Shown here in pieces: positions 1-63,982 of a stretch of DNA of 64,000 nucleotides (positions within the stretch are counted from its first letter, which is position 1; every line of letters begins with the position of its first letter). Under the pieces are notes generated by a model that saw only the letters and a list, made by a program, of their open reading frames with translations, did no database searches and had not been told where the DNA came from. Origin of the DNA: Escherichia coli (GTDB lineage Bacteria > Pseudomonadota > Gammaproteobacteria > Enterobacterales > Enterobacteriaceae). The stretch is taken from assembly GCF_051903065.1 (NCBI RefSeq), contig NZ_CP178438.1; one strand, given 5' to 3'. Both the position numbers and the translations under genes were made by a program.

Positions 1-302
1 AAACGGTAAGGATCATCAATCAGGTTTTGCTGACCATGCCAGACAACAGCCAACTGATAGCGGAAAAAATTCTTACGTCGCGGAATGATGCCGCTAAAGA
101 ATCCCCGTGAGTCGAGACACTCCAGTTTTGCGAGTTTGCGCCCGGTTTTCGGTTCAATCACCCAGACATCGGTAGCGTCGGGTAAAAGGGCACGGACTTC
201 CAGTCCCGCGGTGGTTTTATGCATTCCCAGTACGGAAAAAGGATCCGCAAAATGGCCTGCAATTAGCGCGTTAATCACGTCTCTATCGATACGATCGGAC
301 AT
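1..302 (-). CDS. glgB: 1,4-alpha-glucan branching enzyme GlgB, N-terminal part only (gene continues beyond window start)
   Basis: Reverse-strand translation of 1-302 reads [18 protein letters not shown]...[21 protein letters not shown], the GlgB N-terminus; start codon is the reverse complement of cat at 300-302; truncated by the window edge so not in the ORF track. Confidence 0.85.
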
Positions 303-574
303 GCTTGTCTTCCTGTTTTATTGTGTCACCCCATCCAATTGGATTTTTGACTTCTGGTTGTGACATTTTTTTGACCTGAACGGCGCAGCACTCTGTGCAT
401 CCTCTCTGCGTCGTCCTCACTTCAGGTAAGGCTGTGAATACTCATGTATTCAGCCACCCTTAAAGAATAGCCAATGCTCTATTTAACTCCCGGTAAATCA
501 TGAAACATCTGCGCTTACTCCTGTATTACGCACTAACAGGGGCGGCATCGCGCCCCAGATTTAATGAATAAAGA

Positions 575-1678
575 TTACGCCAGTTGACGAAGCATCCGAC
601 GCAGCGGCTCCGCGGCCCCCCACAGCAGCTGGTCGCCCACGGTAAAGGCTGACAGGAACTCTGGTCCCATATTCAGCTTACGCAGGCGGCCTACCGGCGT
701 GGTCAGCGTGCCGGTAACGGCAGCTGGGGTTAGCTCACGCATAGTGATTTCCCGATCGTTCGGAACGACTTTCGCCCACGGATTGTGCGCAGCCAGCAGT
801 TCTTCCACGGTCGGAATCGACACATCTTTTTTCAATTTAATAGTGAATGCCTGGCTGTGGCAGCGCAATGCCCCGACACGCACACATAAACCATCTACCG
901 GAATTACGGAAGATGTGTTGAGGATCTTGTTGGTTTCCGCCTGCCCTTTCCACTCTTCGCGGCTCTGACCGTTATCGAGCTGTTTGTCGATCCACGGAAT
1001 CAGGCTACCCGCCAGCGGCACGCCAAAGTTATCCACCGGCAGCTCACCGCTACGGGTTAAGGTTGTGACTTTGCGTTCGATATCGAGAATAGCAGAGGAC
1101 GGGGTCGCGAGTTCATCTGCTACATGGCCATACAGATGGCCCATCTGGGTTAATAACTCACGCATATGTCGCGCACCACCGCCGGAAGCGGCCTGGTAGG
1201 TTGCAACGGACACCCAATCAACAAGATCATTGGCGAATAAACCACCCAACGACATCAACATCAGGCTTACGGTACAGTTACCGCCAACAAAAGTCCTGAT
1301 GCCATTATTTAATCCGTCGGTAATGACGTCCTGATTGACGGGGTCAAGAATGATGATGGCGTCATCTTTCATGCGCAGAGACGATGCTGCGTCAATCCAG
1401 TAACCCTGCCATCCGCTTTCACGAAGCTTTGGATAGATTTCGTTGGTATAATCGCCGCCCTGACAGGTCACAATGATATCGAGGGCCTTTAGCGCCTCCA
1501 GATCAAAGGCATCCTGAAGTGTGCCAGTGGTTCCGCCAAAAGACGGCGCAGCCTGACCAAGCTGAGAAGTAGAAAAGAAGACAGGGCGAATGGCGTCGAA
1601 GTCGCGCTCTTCAACCATGCGTTGCATGAGAACGGAGCCGACCATACCGCGCCAGCCGATAAAACCAACATTTTTCAT
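575..1678 (-). CDS. asd: aspartate-semialdehyde dehydrogenase
   Basis: ORF 575..1738; the product from internal Met ([21 protein letters not shown]...) is 367 aa, matching Asd length and N-terminus; upstream extension in track rejected. Confidence 0.93.
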
Positions 1679-1869
1679 AAGCGTTTTTTCCTGCAAAGAT
1701 GTGTGCTGTATAAATGTGCCGGTCTCCTCTTGGCACATCTTTCACCATACAAAAAGCAGCCAAAGTCGCAAGTGAAATTAATCAATGATAGCGAAGCCAT
1801 CAGTAATGCGACTTATCCTGCTTTGTTAGCACGCAGAAAGTCCGCGGCAATTATCAGGGAATTTGAGTT

Positions 1870-2463
1870 ATGAATGAAATCATTTCTGCAGCAGTTTTAT
1901 TGATCCTGATTATGGATCCGCTCGGAAACCTACCTATTTTCATGTCCGTACTGAAACATACTGAACCGAAAAGACGGCGGGCAATCATGGTGCGAGAGTT
2001 GCTTATTGCTCTCCTGGTGATGCTGGTGTTCCTGTTTGCGGGTGAGAAAATTCTGGCATTTCTCAGCCTGCGAGCAGAAACCGTCTCCATTTCTGGCGGC
2101 ATCATTCTGTTTCTAATTGCCATTAAGATGATTTTCCCCAGCGCTTCAGGAAATAGCAGCGGGCTTCCGGCAGGTGAAGAGCCATTTATCGTGCCGCTGG
2201 CAATTCCGCTGGTCGCCGGGCCAACTATTCTCGCCACGCTGATGTTGTTGTCTCATCAGTACCCGAATCAGATGGGACATCTGGTGATTGCTCTGCTGCT
2301 GGCCTGGGGCGGCACCTTTGTCATCCTGCTACAGTCTTCGCTATTTTTACGTCTGCTGGGCGAGAAAGGGGTGAACGCACTTGAACGCCTGATGGGATTG
2401 ATTCTGGTGATGATGGCAACCCAGATGTTCCTCGACGGCATTCGAATGTGGATGAAGGGGTAA
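1870..2463 (+). CDS. yhgN: MarC-family inner membrane protein YhgN
   Basis: 197-aa hydrophobic ORF MNEIISAAVLLILIMDPLGNLPIF...; position right after asd as in E. coli. Confidence 0.9.
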   Translation: MNEIISAAVLLILIMDPLGNLPIFMSVLKHTEPKRRRAIMVRELLIALLVMLVFLFAGEKILAFLSLRAETVSISGGIILFLIAIKMIFPSASGNSSGLPAGEEPFIVPLAIPLVAGPTILATLMLLSHQYPNQMGHLVIALLLAWGGTFVILLQSSLFLRLLGEKGVNALERLMGLILVMMATQMFLDGIRMWMKG

Positions 2464-2468
2464 GGTTC

Positions 2469-2507
2469 AAACAGGTGCTGCACACAACCAGACGCGGCAC
2501 CTGTTTT
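2469..2507 (+). terminator. putative stem-loop terminator between convergent yhgN and DprA-like gene
   Basis: aaacaggtgc (2469-2478) pairs with gcacctgttt (2497-2506), followed by T-run; loop is long (18 nt), so strength uncertain. Confidence 0.4.
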
Positions 2508-2508
2508 A

Positions 2509-3711
2509 TTACCTGAACTGATAATGACCTTCGCCCAATCGGATAACCCTTCCCTCTTCTTCTGCGCGGTTCAGCCACACACTAATTTGTTCGATGGTTA
2601 AACCAGTACAAGACGCCAGCCTTTCAATACTTATCGATTCCTTTGCAAGGATCGCCAGTTCCGCCACAAAGAGTTGATAAAAATCGACAGGCGTATACGC
2701 GGGCATTACTGCGTAATTTGCGTCATCTTCATGCAGCGAAAACAGTTCTGGTTGAGCGTTACGGAGTGCTCTGTCATACATCAGCCCAGGAACGTCTGGC
2801 AGTCTGATCGTCACATTCTCAGCCTGTTCAGCACTCCATGACGCCCCATTTTCTACTAATCGTGAATTGGCTGATTGCATATCCTGATTTGGTTTAACCT
2901 GCACAGGCAGCCACTGATGTTTTAATGCCTCCATCGCCCCGGTTATCGTTCCACCGGTCATTCCCGCACGTACAACCATTGCGCTTTCAGCAAGGCAATA
3001 AATATATTTATTTCGCGCCATCGCATTGCCGACGGTGAAACGTACCTCTGGGTAAAACGGCGAAATCAACACCAGGTTGCCTGCTATAAGCCCTTCACGC
3101 CATTTCACTAACGTACTCGTTTTTAACAAGCTATCAGCTAATACGCCAACGGCAGTTCCCCCGGCCTCCAGTGCCGACGCCATTGCACATTCATCAATAC
3201 CTCGCGCACCACCAGAGATAACGCAAATCCCCTGTTGGGCCAGTTTCGCGGCCAGTTGTTGGGTATAGCGCAAATCGTCAGTCGGAGCATCTCGCGAGCC
3301 AACAATCGCCATACCTTCCGCTTGCAGTAATGCTTTATTCCCGCAGCCAAATAAAACGGGAGGTGCATCCGTTCGCAATCGGTTTTTCAAGCGAACGGGA
3401 TAATCAGCATCTCCGCGGGTTAAGATCCATAAACCGGCGCGTTGCCACTTATCTACCGCCAACGCCAGACTATGACCACGCGCCAGCAAGCCAAGAATAC
3501 GCTCCTGAGAAATACGCGGATCGCTCCAGCCTGTAAGTTTCTCTTGCGGTTGCGGCACCAGAAGCTCGGCGGGACTGATACGTTGGTGCTTCAGCCATAA
3601 TGCAAACTTCCCCCATTCACTATTACTAAGAGGTTTATACTCACTCGCCGCCGCGCGAGAAAAATCGCTGGTTAGCAGGAGAGTTGCTTGTGCATTGGCT
3701 GAAAGATTCAT
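2509..3711 (-). CDS. DprA/Smf-like (SLOG Rossmann-fold) DNA-processing protein paralog
   Basis: ORF 2509..3804; DprA signature ...AIVGSRDAPTDDL...VISGGARGIDECAMASALEAGGTAVGVLADSL...MARNKYIYCLAESAMVVRAG; start assigned to Met32 (3709-3711), which overlaps the upstream helicase stop in a TGATG arrangement; the alternative start at 3804 would overlap the helicase by 94 nt. Confidence 0.75.
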   Translation of the reverse strand: MNLSANAQATLLLTSDFSRAAASEYKPLSNSEWGKFALWLKHQRISPAELLVPQPQEKLTGWSDPRISQERILGLLARGHSLALAVDKWQRAGLWILTRGDADYPVRLKNRLRTDAPPVLFGCGNKALLQAEGMAIVGSRDAPTDDLRYTQQLAAKLAQQGICVISGGARGIDECAMASALEAGGTAVGVLADSLLKTSTLVKWREGLIAGNLVLISPFYPEVRFTVGNAMARNKYIYCLAESAMVVRAGMTGGTITGAMEALKHQWLPVQVKPNQDMQSANSRLVENGASWSAEQAENVTIRLPDVPGLMYDRALRNAQPELFSLHEDDANYAVMPAYTPVDFYQLFVAELAILAKESISIERLASCTGLTIEQISVWLNRAEEEGRVIRLGEGHYQFR

Positions 3712-5807
3712 CAATTTTTTACCGAGGTAGAAGCAAGGGCAAGAGGATAAACCGTCGGGCAACCTGCCTGGCGTAACAGTGCTGTCAGAACTGTCAGCGT
3801 CCATGCAGAATCCACGATATCGTCAACCAGCAACGCCGGACCAGGCATCAAAGGAGGGGTAATCACAAACGCCCCGTCGAGATTTTGACACTGGTGGAAA
3901 CGGTTTTGCTGCATTTTCTGCGGTGGATTGTCCACGACTTTTTCAATGGCATCAATAAAAGGTAAGCCAAGTTTCGCCGCCAGTCGCCGGGCAAAATCAG
4001 AAACCAGGTCGAGGTGCTTTAATGAAGGAACGCAGCATACCCAGGTTGGTTCAGGATGCGGATTCCAGCGTTGGCGAACCATTTCCGCACATGCCTCCAC
4101 CAGTTCATCACTGAATCGTCCCGTTTTTTTCTCCTGTGCTACCTGCTTTCCCCACCCGGAATCTCCCCAACGAGAAAGGATTCGCCCCGTAGATCCTTGT
4201 AAACTCGCAGGCAAGTTCCCTTTAAATCCGTATTGCGTAAAAGCCCCAGCTGCCACCTGTTTATTGAGATTTAATGGCAGGTCAGCGTGTTTAATAAATA
4301 AGTTTGCCGCATGGAGTAAGCCGCTATCAATGTCGGGCGACAACAACGGACGCTGAAGACAACTGCTACATTTACCACAACGTTCGGCACCTGGCTCATC
4401 GAGTGCGCGGCGCAGAAATTGCATTTTGCACTCCTTGGTCGTGATATAGCTTTCAACGTCTGCCAGCTCACTTTTTCTCTGATTCATCAAATGGTTAATT
4501 CGTTCATGGTCAGGAGAAAAACTGACAATTGTTCTGCGCCATAATTTCTCGGTATACACCACAGGCGATGGATTTTCAGCTACCAATAATTTCAGTGCTT
4601 TTTCTATTTGCCCATAACGGAGATTCGTCCGTTGTTCAATGCCTCGTAAGGTAAGACCGTCATTCACGCTAAGTACGTTGAGTATTTCATGAATTTGTGC
4701 CTCCGCAGGAAAGGCGCTTTCACGGAAGAATTTATGAATAGCACGGTCTTCACTGCCGCAAAGCAGTATGCCAACAGCAGAATCGATACCGCGACCGGCA
4801 CGCCCCACCTGTTGGTAGTAACCAACTATCGAACCTGGCATCTGGTAATGAATAACAAACCCCAAATCCGGTTTGTCAAAGCCCATTCCCAGCGCCGTTG
4901 TCGCAACCAGCACTTTAATTTTATTTGCCAGCAACGCCTGCTCCAGATATTCCCTGGCAGTATTAGAATCTTCCGCGCCTTCACAAGTCACGCCGCTGTA
5001 GTAAGCAAATGCACTGATACCATTTTTCCTTAACCACTCGGCGACAAGTTCGGCATCGCGAGTAGTCAGGGTATAAACAATTCCCGATTTGGAAAACTGA
5101 GGGATAACCGTTGCTAACCATGCCAGACGGGATGACTGTTCACCTAAGACTAAGGCATCAAGCGCCAAACTTTCGCGAGCCAGCGTTCCACGCTGAATCA
5201 CAATGTCACCCAATTGCTGACGGATATCCTCAACGACACGGTTATTCGCTGTCGCGGTTGTACCCAGAACAGGGGTATTCGCAGGTAGTTGGCGCAAAAT
5301 ATCTAATATACGTCGGTAATCCGGGCGAAAATCGTGGCCCCAATCAGAGATGCAGTGCGCCTCGTCGACCACAAGCAAGCCAATACGATCGGCTATAGGA
5401 TATAAAACCGTTTCGATAAAGTCCTGGTTTGCCAAACGTTCCGGGGAAACCAGCAAGCAATCGACCTCACCTTGCAGCAACTTATCGCTAATGCGCTGCC
5501 ATTCTTCTCTGTTTGTAGAATTCAACGTTTCAGCCGTAATACCTAACCGTTCAGCGGCGGCAACCTGGTTACGCATCAGGGCAAGCAAAGGAGAGATGAT
5601 AATTGTCGGGCCAGCGCCGCGATCGCGGAAGATTTTACTGGCGATGAAGTACACAGCACTTTTCCCCCAGCCAGTGCGTTGGACAACCAGCAGTTTTCGC
5701 CGTTGGTTCACCACCGCGTCTATGGCTTCCCATTGCCCTTCCCTGAAAGTAGCGGTGGTATTTCCTAACATCCGCTGTAAAAGCAATTCAGCTGCGTGCT
5801 TTTCCAT
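3711..5807 (-). CDS. RecQ-family SF2 DNA helicase with C-terminal ComF/GntX-like phosphoribosyltransferase-fold domain
   Basis: 698 aa; Walker A QRTGWGKS, DEAH box VVDEAHCISDWGHDFRPDY, TATA motif, QQVGRAGRG arginine finger, Cys4 zinc site C460/C477/C480/C483 (17-3-3 spacing as in RecQ); C-terminal ...GAFVITPP...PALLVDDIVDSAWTL... resembles the PRTase-type nucleotide-binding loop of ComF-family proteins; strong SD (aggag) upstream of ATG at 5805-5807. Confidence 0.8.
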   Translation of the reverse strand: MEKHAAELLLQRMLGNTTATFREGQWEAIDAVVNQRRKLLVVQRTGWGKSAVYFIASKIFRDRGAGPTIIISPLLALMRNQVAAAERLGITAETLNSTNREEWQRISDKLLQGEVDCLLVSPERLANQDFIETVLYPIADRIGLLVVDEAHCISDWGHDFRPDYRRILDILRQLPANTPVLGTTATANNRVVEDIRQQLGDIVIQRGTLARESLALDALVLGEQSSRLAWLATVIPQFSKSGIVYTLTTRDAELVAEWLRKNGISAFAYYSGVTCEGAEDSNTAREYLEQALLANKIKVLVATTALGMGFDKPDLGFVIHYQMPGSIVGYYQQVGRAGRGIDSAVGILLCGSEDRAIHKFFRESAFPAEAQIHEILNVLSVNDGLTLRGIEQRTNLRYGQIEKALKLLVAENPSPVVYTEKLWRRTIVSFSPDHERINHLMNQRKSELADVESYITTKECKMQFLRRALDEPGAERCGKCSSCLQRPLLSPDIDSGLLHAANLFIKHADLPLNLNKQVAAGAFTQYGFKGNLPASLQGSTGRILSRWGDSGWGKQVAQEKKTGRFSDELVEACAEMVRQRWNPHPEPTWVCCVPSLKHLDLVSDFARRLAAKLGLPFIDAIEKVVDNPPQKMQQNRFHQCQNLDGAFVITPPLMPGPALLVDDIVDSAWTLTVLTALLRQAGCPTVYPLALASTSVKN

Positions 5808-5907
5808 CTTTATCTCCTGCGATCTTTAGGCAGTGATTAGAACGGATTATTTGCAGGTAAATTTGCGAGAGAGATCAAAAAGATGAAGAGAGGAGAAAAG
5901 AGAAATG

Positions 5908-5935
5908 AATTACTGCGAGCAAGCTCGCAGTAATT
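5908..5935 (-). terminator. rho-independent terminator downstream of gntU
   Basis: Perfect inverted repeat aattactgcgagc-aa-gctcgcagtaatt; on the minus strand it is followed by a T-rich tract (catttctcttttctcc...). Confidence 0.6.
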
Positions 5936-5946
5936 TGTCGCAGTAA

Positions 5947-7287
5947 TTAACTCAACAGCTGGAACGCAATCATCCCAACGATGGCACCAACAGTGCCGAG
6001 GATGGTTTCCATCATGGTCCAGGTTTTCAGCGTTTCGGCTTCGGTCGCGCCGGTAAATTTACCGAACAACCAGAAACCGGCGTCGTTAACGTGGCTGACA
6101 ACAATCGAACCACCGGCGATACAAATCGACAGCGCCGCCATTTGCGCACCGGAGTAGTTCAGTTGTTCAATGACCGGCATCACCAGCCCCACCGCCGTTA
6201 AACAGGCAACGGTGGCAGACCCCTGAATGATGCGCACTGCAGCTGCCAGCACGAAGCAGGTGATAGCAATCGGCAGGCCCATGCCGGTTAACGCTTCGCC
6301 CAGTGCCGGACCTACGCCAGAGTCAACCAGCACCTGTTTGAACACGCCGCCCGCACCAATCACCAGCAGAATGATCCCCGCCGGTTGCAGCGCGTGACCG
6401 CAAATCTCCATCACTTTGTCTTTTGGCATGCCCTGACGCATTGCCAGGCCATAAATCGCTACCAGACAAGCAACCAGAATCGCGGTAAACGGATGACCAA
6501 TAAACTCGAACCATTCGTAAGCAGTAGAGCCTTCCGGCACAAAACGCGCGGCAATGGTTTTCAGCCCCACCAGCACCAGCGGCAGCAGGATCAGCGACAG
6601 GCTGAATCCGAAGGACGGCATTTTGCCTTCGCCGAGATGCGGCTCGCTGATGTCGTCAGGAATATGCAGCTCAACGTAACGGCTGATGAAGTTACCCCAC
6701 AGCGGCCCGGCAATAATCATTCCCGGAATTGCCGCACACAGGCCAATCAGGATCATCCAGCCAAAATCGGCGTTCATCTGCGATGCCAGCAGCATTGGCG
6801 CTGGCCCTGGCACCAGGAACGCCGCCGCTGCCGCCACGCCTGCGAATAATGGGATTACCAGCTTCACCAGGTTCGTACCGGTGTGGCGCGCCATTGAGAA
6901 AGCAACGCTAATCAGCAGAACAATCGCCACTTCAAAGAACAGCGGTAGCGCACAGACCAGCCCCGCAAGGCCGATGGCATAATGCGCGCGGCTGTGACCG
7001 AAGGATTTAAGCATTTTGACGGCAATCTGATCGACTGCGCCGGTTTCATGTAAGATCTTGCCAAACATAGCTCCCAGGGCGACAACCACCGCCAGGAAGC
7101 CGAGGGTGCCTCCCATCCCTTTTTCCATCGTCGCTGCGATTTTATCGAGCGGCATACCGGAAAAAAGGCCAGCCCCCATGGACACCACCATTAAAGCCAG
7201 GAAAGCGTGCATACGCGCCTTCATGACTAAAAACAGCAGCAGTAAAACAGACCCTACTGCTGTTAAAACAAGCGTTAATGTAGTCAC
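5947..7287 (-). CDS. gntU: low-affinity gluconate transporter (GntP family)
   Basis: 446-aa polytopic membrane protein MTTLTLVLTAVGSVLLLLFLVMKARMHAF...; conserved position upstream of gntK/gntR. Confidence 0.9.
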   Translation of the reverse strand: MTTLTLVLTAVGSVLLLLFLVMKARMHAFLALMVVSMGAGLFSGMPLDKIAATMEKGMGGTLGFLAVVVALGAMFGKILHETGAVDQIAVKMLKSFGHSRAHYAIGLAGLVCALPLFFEVAIVLLISVAFSMARHTGTNLVKLVIPLFAGVAAAAAFLVPGPAPMLLASQMNADFGWMILIGLCAAIPGMIIAGPLWGNFISRYVELHIPDDISEPHLGEGKMPSFGFSLSLILLPLVLVGLKTIAARFVPEGSTAYEWFEFIGHPFTAILVACLVAIYGLAMRQGMPKDKVMEICGHALQPAGIILLVIGAGGVFKQVLVDSGVGPALGEALTGMGLPIAITCFVLAAAVRIIQGSATVACLTAVGLVMPVIEQLNYSGAQMAALSICIAGGSIVVSHVNDAGFWLFGKFTGATEAETLKTWTMMETILGTVGAIVGMIAFQLLS

Positions 7288-46462: not shown

Positions 46463-47044
46463 ATGTCGGGCATTCGCTCGCTACCGATGATTAAGCTGCT
46501 GACTGGATTATTGCTGCTCGCCTGGCCGTTTGTGATTTGGTTTGGCTTAGCGCATAACGGCCTGCACTGGCTGTTACCGCTAATGGCGTTGCTGCTTTTG
46601 TTGCGTCTGCGCCAGACCCGTCGCCAGGCGGGGCCTTTACAAGCCGTCACGCAACTCGTCGCTGTCGTGGGCATCGCATTATGTGTCGCCAGCTTTATGT
46701 TGAAAACGCACCAGCTACTGCTGTTTTACCCGGTAGTGGTTAACGCGGTCATGCTGGCGGTTTTTGGCGGTTCGCTGTGGTCGGCAATGCCGATAGTTGA
46801 GCGGCTGGCGCGGTTGCAGGAGCCAGACCTCCCGGAAAAGGGCGTGCGCTATACCCGCCACGTCACGCAAATCTGGTGCGGCTTTTTCATCATTAACGGT
46901 GGAATTGCCCTCTTTACCGCGCTTTATGCCGATATGTCGTTATGGACCGCCTGGAACGGCATGATTGCTTATTTGTTGATGGGGACGTTAATGGCTGGTG
47001 AATGGCTGGTGCGCCGCCAGGTTATGAAAAGAGATCGCGCATGA
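46463..47044 (+). CDS. hypothetical integral membrane protein
   Basis: 193 aa, about 4-5 hydrophobic helices (LLTGLLLLAWPFVIWFGLAH...). Confidence 0.7.
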   Translation: MSGIRSLPMIKLLTGLLLLAWPFVIWFGLAHNGLHWLLPLMALLLLLRLRQTRRQAGPLQAVTQLVAVVGIALCVASFMLKTHQLLLFYPVVVNAVMLAVFGGSLWSAMPIVERLARLQEPDLPEKGVRYTRHVTQIWCGFFIINGGIALFTALYADMSLWTAWNGMIAYLLMGTLMAGEWLVRRQVMKRDRA

Positions 47045-63949: not shown

Positions 63950-63982
63950 AACTGAACTTAATTTATAAAATTAAGTTCAGTT
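63950..63982. repeat. perfect 13-bp inverted repeat (hairpin) downstream of nikR
   Basis: aactgaacttaat-ttataaa-attaagttcagtt; no T-run, so not a canonical intrinsic terminator. Confidence 0.55.

Follow-up and report, generated by a model that had tools for sequence, protein, structure and literature searches.

A conserved stem-loop with an adjacent copy-number-variable repeat, the probable leaky terminator of gntU, at the edge of the rqlHI cassette in Escherichia coli

The palindrome that separates gntU from the neighbouring helicase cassette of Escherichia coli is most likely part of an ordinary feature, consisting of a conserved stem-loop and a repeat that varies in copy number. Judged from sequence comparisons, it probably forms the stem-loop at the 3' end of the gntKU transcript where the yhgN-gntU spacer is the allele with rqlHI, and would serve there, most likely, as an intrinsic and probably leaky terminator that insulates rqlHI. 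The gntU terminator put forward in the earlier note is the best-supported explanation, given the stable hairpin on the sense strand, the covariation of its stem across lineages, and the position of the terminators in alleles that lack the cassette. The cassette itself is the known rqlHI, or PsyrTA, toxin-antitoxin defence pair. The features discussed are collected in Table 1.

Table 1. Features at the two edges of the rqlHI cassette; positions refer to the 64-kb window, the whole stretch of DNA that was analysed.
Feature	Position	Strand	Basis and remarks
yhgN-side hairpin	2469..2506	.	13-bp stem, 12-nt loop, then UUUUAUU (+ strand)
rqlI / psyrA, DprA-like antitoxin	2509..3804	-	PADLOC, Pfam, alignment, sequence
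rqlH / psyrT, RecQ-like helicase-PRTase toxin	3711..5807	-	PADLOC, Pfam, RefSeq annotation, PMC4670107
-10-like hexamer TCTAAT (candidate)	5836..5841	-	Alignment, inference; exactly 22 nt past box TTTGATCTCTCTCGCA
Conserved box TTTGATCTCTCTCGCA, CRP-site-like	5864..5879	-	Spacer alignment, consensus comparison by eye; downstream of the hairpin
Pyrimidine/U-rich tail CAUUUCUCUUUU	5896..5907	-	Directly 3' of the hairpin; interrupted, weak U-tract
28-nt palindrome	5908..5935	-	Repeat finder, RNA folding, covariation in seven lineages
Extra 13-bp tandem unit TGTCGCAGTAATT (+ strand letters)	5936..5948	-	Repeat finder, strain comparison
gntU stop codon TAA	5947..5949	-	ORF list, sequence
gntU, gluconate transporter	5947..7287	-	ORF list, annotation; the hairpin follows its 3' end

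The repeat finder returned two palindromic arms of 13 nt each (5908-5920 and 5923-5935; AATTACTGCGAGC / GCTCGCAGTAATT), 100% complementary and separated by 2 nt, together with the direct 11-mer TCGCAGTAATT at 5925-5935 and again at 5938-5948, a spacing of 13 nt. This confirms the perfect inverted repeat of 13 bp and the recurrence of the 11-mer 2 bp further on, both of which had been described from the letters alone. Since the gntU reading frame lies on the minus strand, its stop codon and the second 11-mer overlap, as had also been claimed, and have the final 2 nt of that copy in common; read in the gntU direction, the last two bases of the TAA are the first two of the 11-mer. The extra 13-bp unit holds this second direct copy, and it is this unit that provides the 11 nt separating the hairpin from the gntU stop codon. 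The window contains the 11-mer exactly three times, twice in direct and once in inverted orientation, all within the same 41 bp. The whole window has only three sites at which perfect inverted repeats reach 11 bp or more and enclose a loop of at most 8 nt; each of 20 block-shuffled versions contained 0-2 such sites, and 17 of them contained none. By itself, a closely spaced direct repeat of 11 nt is only slightly out of the ordinary; the window has a second example at 46990.

In the gntU-sense RNA, the palindrome reads AAUUACUGCGAGC-UU-GCUCGCAGUAAUU and folds into a 12-bp stem, with five G-C pairs and a 4-nt loop, at about -16 kcal/mol; relative to shuffles, the hairpin in its context scores z = -3.7 to -3.9 (-3.9 for the 96-nt context). 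It begins 11 nt past the gntU TAA in the common E. coli form, 9-17 nt past the stop codon in the other six rqlHI lineages, and 0 nt past it in the HB6 variant. The tail CAUUUCUCUUUU contains six U in its first 10 nt, and tails rich in U or pyrimidines, with 5-6 U in the first 10 nt, follow the hairpin in six of the seven cassette lineages. The element thus resembles intrinsic terminators in being a sense-strand stem-loop a few nucleotides past a stop codon, with a G+C-rich upper stem, a short loop, compensatory changes and a U-rich stretch behind the stem. It departs from them in its A/U-rich stem base, its interrupted U-tract, and a 7-bp core that is unusually invariant across genera. In E. 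coli, the U-tract measure of the cassette hairpin is 2.1, well below the 2.7-4.8 of the terminators at empty sites; among the seven cassette lineages, it reaches 3.1 in L101 and lies at 1.0-2.1 in the remaining six. The Carafa-type score is negative for every cassette hairpin. Because the U-tract is weak, termination may be leaky. A terminator scan picked the palindrome hairpin on the gntU strand, although the same scan overall returned fewer matches than it did in shuffles. RNA folding found no second hairpin in the gntU-rqlH interval, and an Rfam search of the element gave only sub-threshold noise (E >= 0.5).

Alleles that lack the cassette provide the closest comparison. The cassette is carried by about 1,650 of 5,426 complete E. 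coli genomes, and the palindrome is found in 1,650 E. coli genomes, in one place each. Nissle 1917, ATCC 25922 and F11 are strains with the cassette, and in 14 E. coli genomes the 65-bp region differs at 1-3 positions. A repeated element of the REP, MITE or iteron type is ruled out by the single occurrence of the motif per genome and by the single locus in the window; the motif was never found on plasmids. In E. coli without the cassette, yhgN and gntU are separated by an unrelated 56-bp spacer with a terminator hairpin of its own, and homology between the two kinds of genome breaks exactly at the two stop codons. The cassette-free gntU loci of K-12, BL21, Cronobacter and L096 end in other hairpin and U-tract terminators, 9-17 nt past the stop codon, so that the cassette hairpin occupies the position held there by canonical terminators. 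The CTGCGAG core is absent from all of these cassette-free terminators. The K-12 gntU/yhgN terminator, CCCGGTAG-N8-CTACCGGG, is bidirectional, whereas the cassette hairpin serves one direction only. The palindrome, whose unchanged presence in genomes without the cassette the earlier note had named as evidence against an insertion scar, was not found in them and is strictly tied to the cassette allele.

The identity of the cassette rests on full-length PADLOC matches to a helicase-PRTase followed by a DprA-like antitoxin, namely PsyrT (E=0, residues 3-697 of 698) and PsyrA (E=1.5e-202), and on the Pfam domains DEAD and Helicase_C in rqlH and DNA_processg_A in PsyrA. The two genes overlap at TGATG, and the real start of rqlI is probably the ATG at 3711-3709, which overlaps the rqlH stop codon. 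On the yhgN side, a further hairpin (-26.7 kcal/mol, z = -4.8), unrelated in sequence to the gntU-side element, is likely to be a bidirectional terminator of yhgN and rqlI. Russell & Mulvey (2015, PMC4670107) described rqlHI as a two-gene operon separate from the neighbouring genes, and RqlI as having a predicted C-terminal HTH that is not needed for antitoxin function. Their paper does not mention gntU, yhgN or a terminator (0 occurrences), and under those terms nothing was found in it on the hairpin, on the repeat or on the upstream boxes that are conserved here.

Between the hairpin and rqlH, the lineage comparison revealed conserved promoter-like boxes, 29-70 nt downstream of the palindrome. 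The box TTTGATCTCTCTCGCA matches TGTGA-N6-TCACA, by eye, at 8 of 10 positions in E. coli and at 9 of 10 in three other lineages, and may form part of a promoter belonging to rqlHI itself; the alignment columns of the -10-like TCTAAT hold TAAAT(A) in other lineages. A promoter scan called no sigma-70 promoter in the gntU-rqlH spacer, TCTAAT included. In the proposed mechanism, the hairpin would shield the rqlHI toxin-antitoxin operon from gluconate-induced transcription of gntKU, while rqlHI would be driven by its own promoter situated downstream of the hairpin.

Conservation across lineages supports a selected structure. In all seven lineages with gntU-adjacent rqlHI (E. coli, Citrobacter freundii, Silvania hatchlandensis and four others), a hairpin is present at the same place. 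The close rqlHI relatives were taken from the protein database, and the contig search gave none above 66% identity among the matches listed. The core CTGCGAG-N4-CTCGCAG is nearly invariant: six of the seven lineages share it unchanged, in a spacer that can otherwise barely be aligned. The outer stem covaries among the seven. Across the seven-lineage alignment, 97.6% of cells are paired, and double-sided changes occur at five of the 12 base pairs, in 10 cells; when the alignment registers are slid, pairing falls to 23-58%. Covariation scored 0.437, where shuffles gave 0.146 and none of 500 reached the observed value, in a sample of seven sequences in which a DNA palindrome kept for dimer binding would give the same pattern. 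G-U wobbles on the gntU-sense strand account for three of the four asymmetries in the stem. As the core stays almost invariant despite only 57-75% identity of the neighbouring proteins across lineages, there is a hint of sequence-specific recognition beyond pairing.

This hint bears on the foremost alternative, which is unlikely, namely that the palindrome is an operator bound by a protein as double-stranded DNA, for instance by the antitoxin RqlI as a dimer, with its C-terminal HTH making the contact, so that rqlHI would regulate itself. The half-sites of the core are centred one helical turn apart, the extra 11-mers would be added half-sites, and such a role could coexist with that of a terminator. 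Palindromic operators of toxin-antitoxin operons offer a likeness, in that a perfect palindrome here lies upstream of such an operon whose antitoxin has a predicted HTH. The invariance of the core in a barely alignable spacer, the strict tie of the palindrome to the cassette rather than to gntU, and a U-tract that is weak for a terminator all agree with an operator, as does the dispensability of the HTH for toxin neutralisation (PMC4670107). Symmetric change of both half-sites would also be expected if a dimer and its site co-evolved, and RqlI has a weak match to Pfam HTH_26 (E=0.097; 13.4 bits, below the cutoff of 22). Against an operator stands the location: unlike in known toxin-antitoxin operators, the palindrome sits hard against the 3' end of the gene before it and overlaps neither the candidate promoter nor any other predicted promoter element. 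Some 50 nt separate its centre from that of the conserved promoter-like box further downstream, and the promoter scan called nothing around the palindrome. The palindrome is also not kept where family members sit elsewhere. Neither a CTGCGAG palindrome nor an 11-mer cluster was found upstream of rqlH in 80 GTDB species-representative loci in other contexts or in L105 and L106, two 66%-identical rqlHI loci also placed elsewhere, which rejects an operator that travels with rqlHI. In the distant rqlHI loci, the best upstream inverted-repeat arm is at most 6 nt in 61 of 78, and mostly none exceeds chance. The palindrome is specific to the gntU-adjacent enterobacterial lineage and sets it apart from the other rqlHI/PsyrTA loci examined. 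In the protein alignment, RqlI is least conserved in its C-terminal region, whereas the DNA core is invariant, and the G-U wobbles likewise tell, suggestively, against a DNA site.

A combined role is somewhat less probable still. The hairpin would then be a dual-purpose control point, whose core may be recognised sequence-specifically, as DNA or as hairpin, one candidate for this being the C-terminal HTH of RqlI, which otherwise has no explanation. Its weak U-tract may make it a leaky attenuator that couples rqlHI expression to gluconate- and CRP-driven transcription of gntKU, and the number of 13-nt units, by setting the distance of the hairpin from a ribosome halted at the gntU stop codon, may tune read-through.

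A slightly lower probability, and in any case a small one, attaches to a hairpin that stabilises the RNA at its 3' end or marks it for processing: it would shield gntKU mRNA from 3' exonucleases or be cut by RNase III, while termination would take place elsewhere, for example by Rho. A stable, conserved hairpin with a poor U-tract in most lineages, and covariation that reflects selection on pairing, would suit this role, which sequence analysis could hardly tell from that of a leaky terminator. The canonical hairpin and U-tract terminators at the same place in cassette-free alleles, however, and the tails that remain U- or pyrimidine-rich in six of the seven lineages, favour termination.

The repeat itself varies between strains. 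The extra 13-bp unit is missing from one genome (HB6), present once in 1,647, and present twice in two (94-3024 and CFSAN002236), corresponding to one, two and three direct copies of the 11-mer. Because the copy number varies in this way, the tandem repeat is real. Expansion consists of exact additional copies of the unit next to the stop codon, and gntU is intact in every copy-number state. The extra unit would be gained and lost through slipped-strand mispairing, with the gntU stop codon regenerated each time, and in the common form it places the hairpin within the range of distances from the stop codon seen in the other lineages; the spacing may matter for termination. With differences at two of 13 positions, the two 13-bp units do not represent a clean recent duplication. 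Only in E. coli does the spacer resemble the stem arm significantly (combined p 0.06-0.09 in the other lineages), which speaks against a direct repeat ancestral to all lineages, and the E. coli spacer bears some positional resemblance to those of other lineages (TTA..CTG..CA); the E. coli repeat may be a new duplication or an older one that was homogenised again. The locus resembles VNTR-like short tandem repeats in its head-to-tail units and strain-dependent copy number, but it is confined to 1-3 units, is almost monomorphic (1,647 of 1,650 genomes), and uses one unit as a hairpin arm as well. No evidence of a phase-variable function of the repeat was found.

The proposal of the earlier note that the duplicated motif marks the insertion junction or a scar of the cassette is not supported and is largely refuted. 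Such a scar, whether a target-site duplication, an att remnant or a recombination footprint, is highly improbable, even though the repeat abuts the gntU stop codon, the exact point at which homology to cassette-free genomes resumes, and the motif is missing from cassette-free spacers. The alignment of both junctions with the K-12 spacer, which had been suggested as a check, showed no flanking direct repeats and nothing above chance. The yhgN-side junction has no matching repeat, the best local alignment scoring 5, a value equalled by 2,000 of 2,000 shuffles, and the two junctions share no k-mer of at least 8 nt. The empty 56-bp spacers of K-12/TG1 and BL21 are not significantly similar to either end of the cassette, which comprises two genes only, with no integrase, transposase or recombinase. 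The gntU-rqlH junction is ancient, because the same junction and hairpin occur in other genera whose RqlH is 69-74% identical; with RqlH diverged by 26-31% among the lineages that share them, no exact scar of the insertion could have lasted until now. A unit number of 0, 1 or 2 among strains looks like slippage, and the E. coli spacer aligns positionally with those of other lineages, both of which speak against a scar. The 11-6-11 geometry of the repeat superficially resembles tyrosine-recombinase core sites, which would suit a scar. A XerCD dif-like site fits by geometry but is unlikely, the repeat having no evident sequence resemblance to dif. The LexA (SOS) box has the consensus TACTG(TA)5CAGTA, that is, CTG-N10-CAG; the E. 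coli element reads TACTG-N12-CAGTA, which is 2 bp too long, and its TA flanks are specific to E. coli. A pairing of the 11-mer, like an anti-Shine-Dalgarno sequence, with the TCGCAG that this strain has at the rqlH ribosome-binding site was dismissed, as TCGCAG is not conserved even in B2 E. coli.

The current understanding of terminators and of PsyrTA is left unchanged by these results. The natural one-, two- and three-copy variants can be used for testing how the distance from stop codon to hairpin affects termination, and the lineage comparison yields a candidate rqlHI promoter, predicted from a CRP-like box and a -10 element. The cassette allele is not a recent insertion bearing a scar; the yhgN-gntU spacer exists as two alternative haplotypes of long standing, one with rqlHI and one lacking it, and each has terminators of its own. 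In the haplotype that carries it, rqlHI is a chromosomally fixed toxin-antitoxin and defence operon that comes immediately after a sugar operon open to strong induction, from which a conserved and perhaps leaky hairpin separates it.

Just past the 3' end of gntU, on the side facing rqlH, lies a perfect inverted repeat with 13-nt arms (5908-5920 and 5923-5935) separated by 2 nt, and the 11-mer TCGCAGTAATT recurs at 5938-5948, sharing its last two bases with the gntU stop codon, as the earlier note had described. Three copies of this 11-mer lie within 41 bp, ordered direct, direct, inverted on the gntU-sense strand, and none is found elsewhere in the window. Just three sites in the 64 kb have a short-looped perfect inverted repeat of 11 bp or more, while 17 of 20 shuffles of the sequence contained none. 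The other two sites are tabulated; additionally, an exact 11-mer tandem of period 11, AATGGCTGGTG, lies at 46990-47011.

Features of the window and hairpins at the gntU end of other rqlHI lineages
Feature	Position	Strand	Sequence or basis
yhgN	1870..2463	+	
yhgN-edge hairpin	2469-2506		13-bp stem including one G-U pair, 12-nt loop
rqlI, DprA-like protein	2509..3804	-	PADLOC PsyrA E=1.5e-202; Pfam
rqlH, RecQ-family helicase	3711..5807	-	PADLOC PsyrT E=0, full length; Pfam
-10-like TCTAAT	5836-5841	-	exactly 22 nt after CRP-like box
CRP-site-like box	5864-5879	-	TTTGATCTCTCTCGCA; spacer alignment
E. coli hairpin	5908-5935		AATTACTGCGAGC-tt-GCTCGCAGTAATT
gntU	5947..7287	-	ORF
Loop-less palindrome, 22 bp	34798-34819		ACTCTGGAGTCGACTCCAGAGT
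A/T-rich inverted repeat, 15-bp arms	63950-63982		window edge
Citrobacter hairpin			(T)ATTGCTGCGAG-cctt-CTCGCAGCAAT(A)
Silvania hairpin			GTCATAAGCTGCGAG-ttta-CTCGCAGCTTATGAC
Hairpin of lineage L094			TAGCGCTGCGAGC-ac-GCTCGCAGCGCTA
Hairpin of lineage L102			TTGCTGCGAGC-at-GCTCGCAGCAA
Hairpin of lineage L101			less perfect form

The two genes between yhgN and gntU, encoding a RecQ-family helicase and a DprA-like protein, are the rqlHI operon of extraintestinal pathogenic E. coli, a co-transcribed, toxin-antitoxin-like pair (Russell & Mulvey 2015, PMC4670107) that was subsequently classed with anti-phage systems under the name PsyrTA. The text of PMC4670107 mentions neither gntU, yhgN nor a terminator. 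RqlI is annotated in E. coli with 431 aa; in all six other lineages it begins at the counterpart of M32 (MNL...), the ATG of which (3711-3709) overlaps the rqlH TGA, and the true protein is probably 400 aa long and translationally coupled to rqlH. At the far edge, the hairpin beside yhgN (-26.7 kcal/mol, z = -4.8) is followed on the + strand by TTTTATT and lies 3 nt from the rqlI stop codon, a likely bidirectional terminator of yhgN and rqlI. In the O157-type strains E. coli O157:H7 F8092B (L009) and HB6 (L103), the annotation gives rqlH as a pseudogene with a frameshift and an internal stop, and the locus exceeds that of the window by 28 bp.

Outside E. coli and Shigella, the nearest RqlH relatives show only 69-74% identity, and rqlHI adjoins gntU in all six lineages that could be placed on contigs (Citrobacter freundii, Silvania hatchlandensis and four unlabelled enterobacteria). 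Five of these read gntR-gntK-gntU-rqlH-rqlI, followed by yhgN and/or asd; yhgN is present in four, and in L094 asd directly follows rqlI. L102 retains gntU with different downstream genes; L100 and L101 were fetched with shorter flanks, which put yhhX, yhhW and glgB out of reach. Against the E. coli proteins, identity is 94-97% for GntU, 69-74% for RqlH and 58-64% for RqlI, and the gntU-rqlH junction is old. Downstream of yhgN, other enterobacteria hold different cargo, such as a BrnT/BrnA toxin-antitoxin pair (L098 5673-6249, YhgN named for Klebsiella sp. BIGb0407) or a YdgH/BhsA-like gene with gntU missing (L099 5700-5915, Citrobacter sp. JGM124); this spot looks like a recurrent site of small accessory cassettes.

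Each of the six other spacers has a hairpin starting 9-17 nt past the gntU stop. When the seven lineages are aligned without gaps, pairing is kept in 97.6% of cells and falls to 23-58% when the register is slid; double-sided changes affect 5 of 12 pairs, in 10 cells, a covariation reached by none of 500 shuffles. The inner seven pairs, CTGCGAG/CTCGCAG, do not vary except in L101. Cassette-free gntU loci (K-12, BL21, Cronobacter sakazakii and L096) carry unrelated canonical hairpin and U-tract terminators at the equivalent position. Upstream of rqlH, the 11-mer and the CTGCGAG palindrome are both missing from the 80 GTDB species representatives listed (at most 66% identity), and also from a 66% relative beside IS91 and a Proteus copy, and in most rqlHI loci of other contexts no inverted repeat above chance is found there. 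The element thus belongs to the order gntU end, then rqlH, as expected of gntU's terminator in the cassette haplotype.

Upstream of the IS91-associated rqlH (L105 2900-3000), the inverted repeats TTATGTC-N6-GACATAA and ACCGC-GA-GCGGT, within CAAGTTTACCGCGAGCGGTGAGCTTG, bear no relation to the one in E. coli. In L106 (1-8100), whose RqlH is named for Proteus terrae, the two genes form part of a type I restriction-modification operon, hsdM-hsdS-rqlH-rqlI-hsdR, with a gap of 14 nt. Several 64-66% relatives (L010, L011, L013, L015) have a co-oriented ORF of 376-1060 aa whose end lies some 15 nt ahead of rqlH, suggestive of larger operons.

The covariation and the positional match to the empty-allele terminators support the earlier note's proposal that the palindrome ends gntU transcription. 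In the best-supported reading, it would form the stem-loop at the 3' end of the gntKU mRNA, acting as an intrinsic terminator or insulator ahead of the toxic rqlHI operon, and the extra 13-bp unit would merely space the stop codon from the hairpin. Downstream of the hairpin, eight aligned spacers share two blocks at fixed spacing: TTTGAT-N..-TC(G/A)CA, which by eye shares 8-9 of the 10 CRP consensus positions in most lineages, and the -10-like TCTAAT or TAAAT(A) 22 nt later. Their layout recalls a class II CRP-dependent promoter; because the promoter scan gave no call there, we only infer a putative promoter of rqlHI's own, which would place the hairpin between it and the gntU end.

An operator palindrome, or an element serving as both terminator and operator, is unlikely but stays a live rival, since the U-tract is interrupted and weak for a simple terminator, the core is more invariant than pairing alone demands, and RqlI has a reported C-terminal HTH (Pfam match below threshold), dispensable for RqlH neutralisation. 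By the U-tract measure and a Carafa-type score, of which only the ranking is trustworthy, the U-tract is clearly weaker than in the cassette-free terminators. Against an operator, some 50 nt separate the palindrome from the candidate promoter box downstream of it, the rqlHI loci compared from elsewhere lack it, and the RqlI C-terminus is the protein's least conserved part. More doubtful still is a leaky, sequence-specifically recognised attenuator coupling rqlHI expression to gluconate metabolism.

The earlier note's suggestion of an insertion junction or scar is not supported. Across 5,426 complete E. coli genomes, segment 1870-6300 is at least 80% present in 1,641, and the rqlH-gntU spacer occurs in 1,650, chromosomal and single-copy in all; the remainder have a yhgN-gntU gap of about 56 bp. 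In TG1 (K-12) and BL21 this reads CGAGGAGAGTTTTTCGAAAAGA(A/G)CCCGGTAGCGTCACAACTACCGGGCGAACAAAC, and the gntU strand has a hairpin of its own with a UUCUUUUCG tail. Homology between the haplotypes stops exactly after the yhgN TAA (2463) and restarts precisely with the stop of gntU (5947), which puts 3,483 bp in place of 56 bp. The cassette ends share no repeat, and the K-12 spacer has no significant similarity to either; the junction comparison proposed in the earlier note thus yields neither a target-site duplication nor an att-like footprint.

In 1,636 of the 1,650 genomes, the 65-bp stretch surrounding the element shows 99% identity or more, and the 41 bp persist without change in phylogroup B2 strains, where the rest of the spacer differs at many positions. 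Copy number of the 13-bp unit, TGTCGCAGTAATT, differs between genomes: a single extra unit is present in 1,647, two are found in strains 94-3024 and CFSAN002236, and HB6, one of the O157-type strains in which rqlH is annotated as a pseudogene, is the sole genome with none, so that the hairpin abuts the stop codon of an intact gntU. Such variation is how a short tandem repeat behaves under slippage, unlike a recombination scar. The exact second 11-mer copy is confined to E. coli among the lineages compared; elsewhere the stop-to-hairpin stretch aligns positionally with it (TTA..CTG..CA) and weakly resembles the stem arm (combined p 0.06-0.09). Between the two units of the common allele, 2 of 13 positions differ, so the extra unit would stem either from an old duplication or from an older, degenerate copy that was partly re-homogenised.

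The feature is of known kinds, a covariation-conserved terminator-type hairpin and a small tandem repeat of variable copy number, adjoining an already described toxin-antitoxin and defence cassette.
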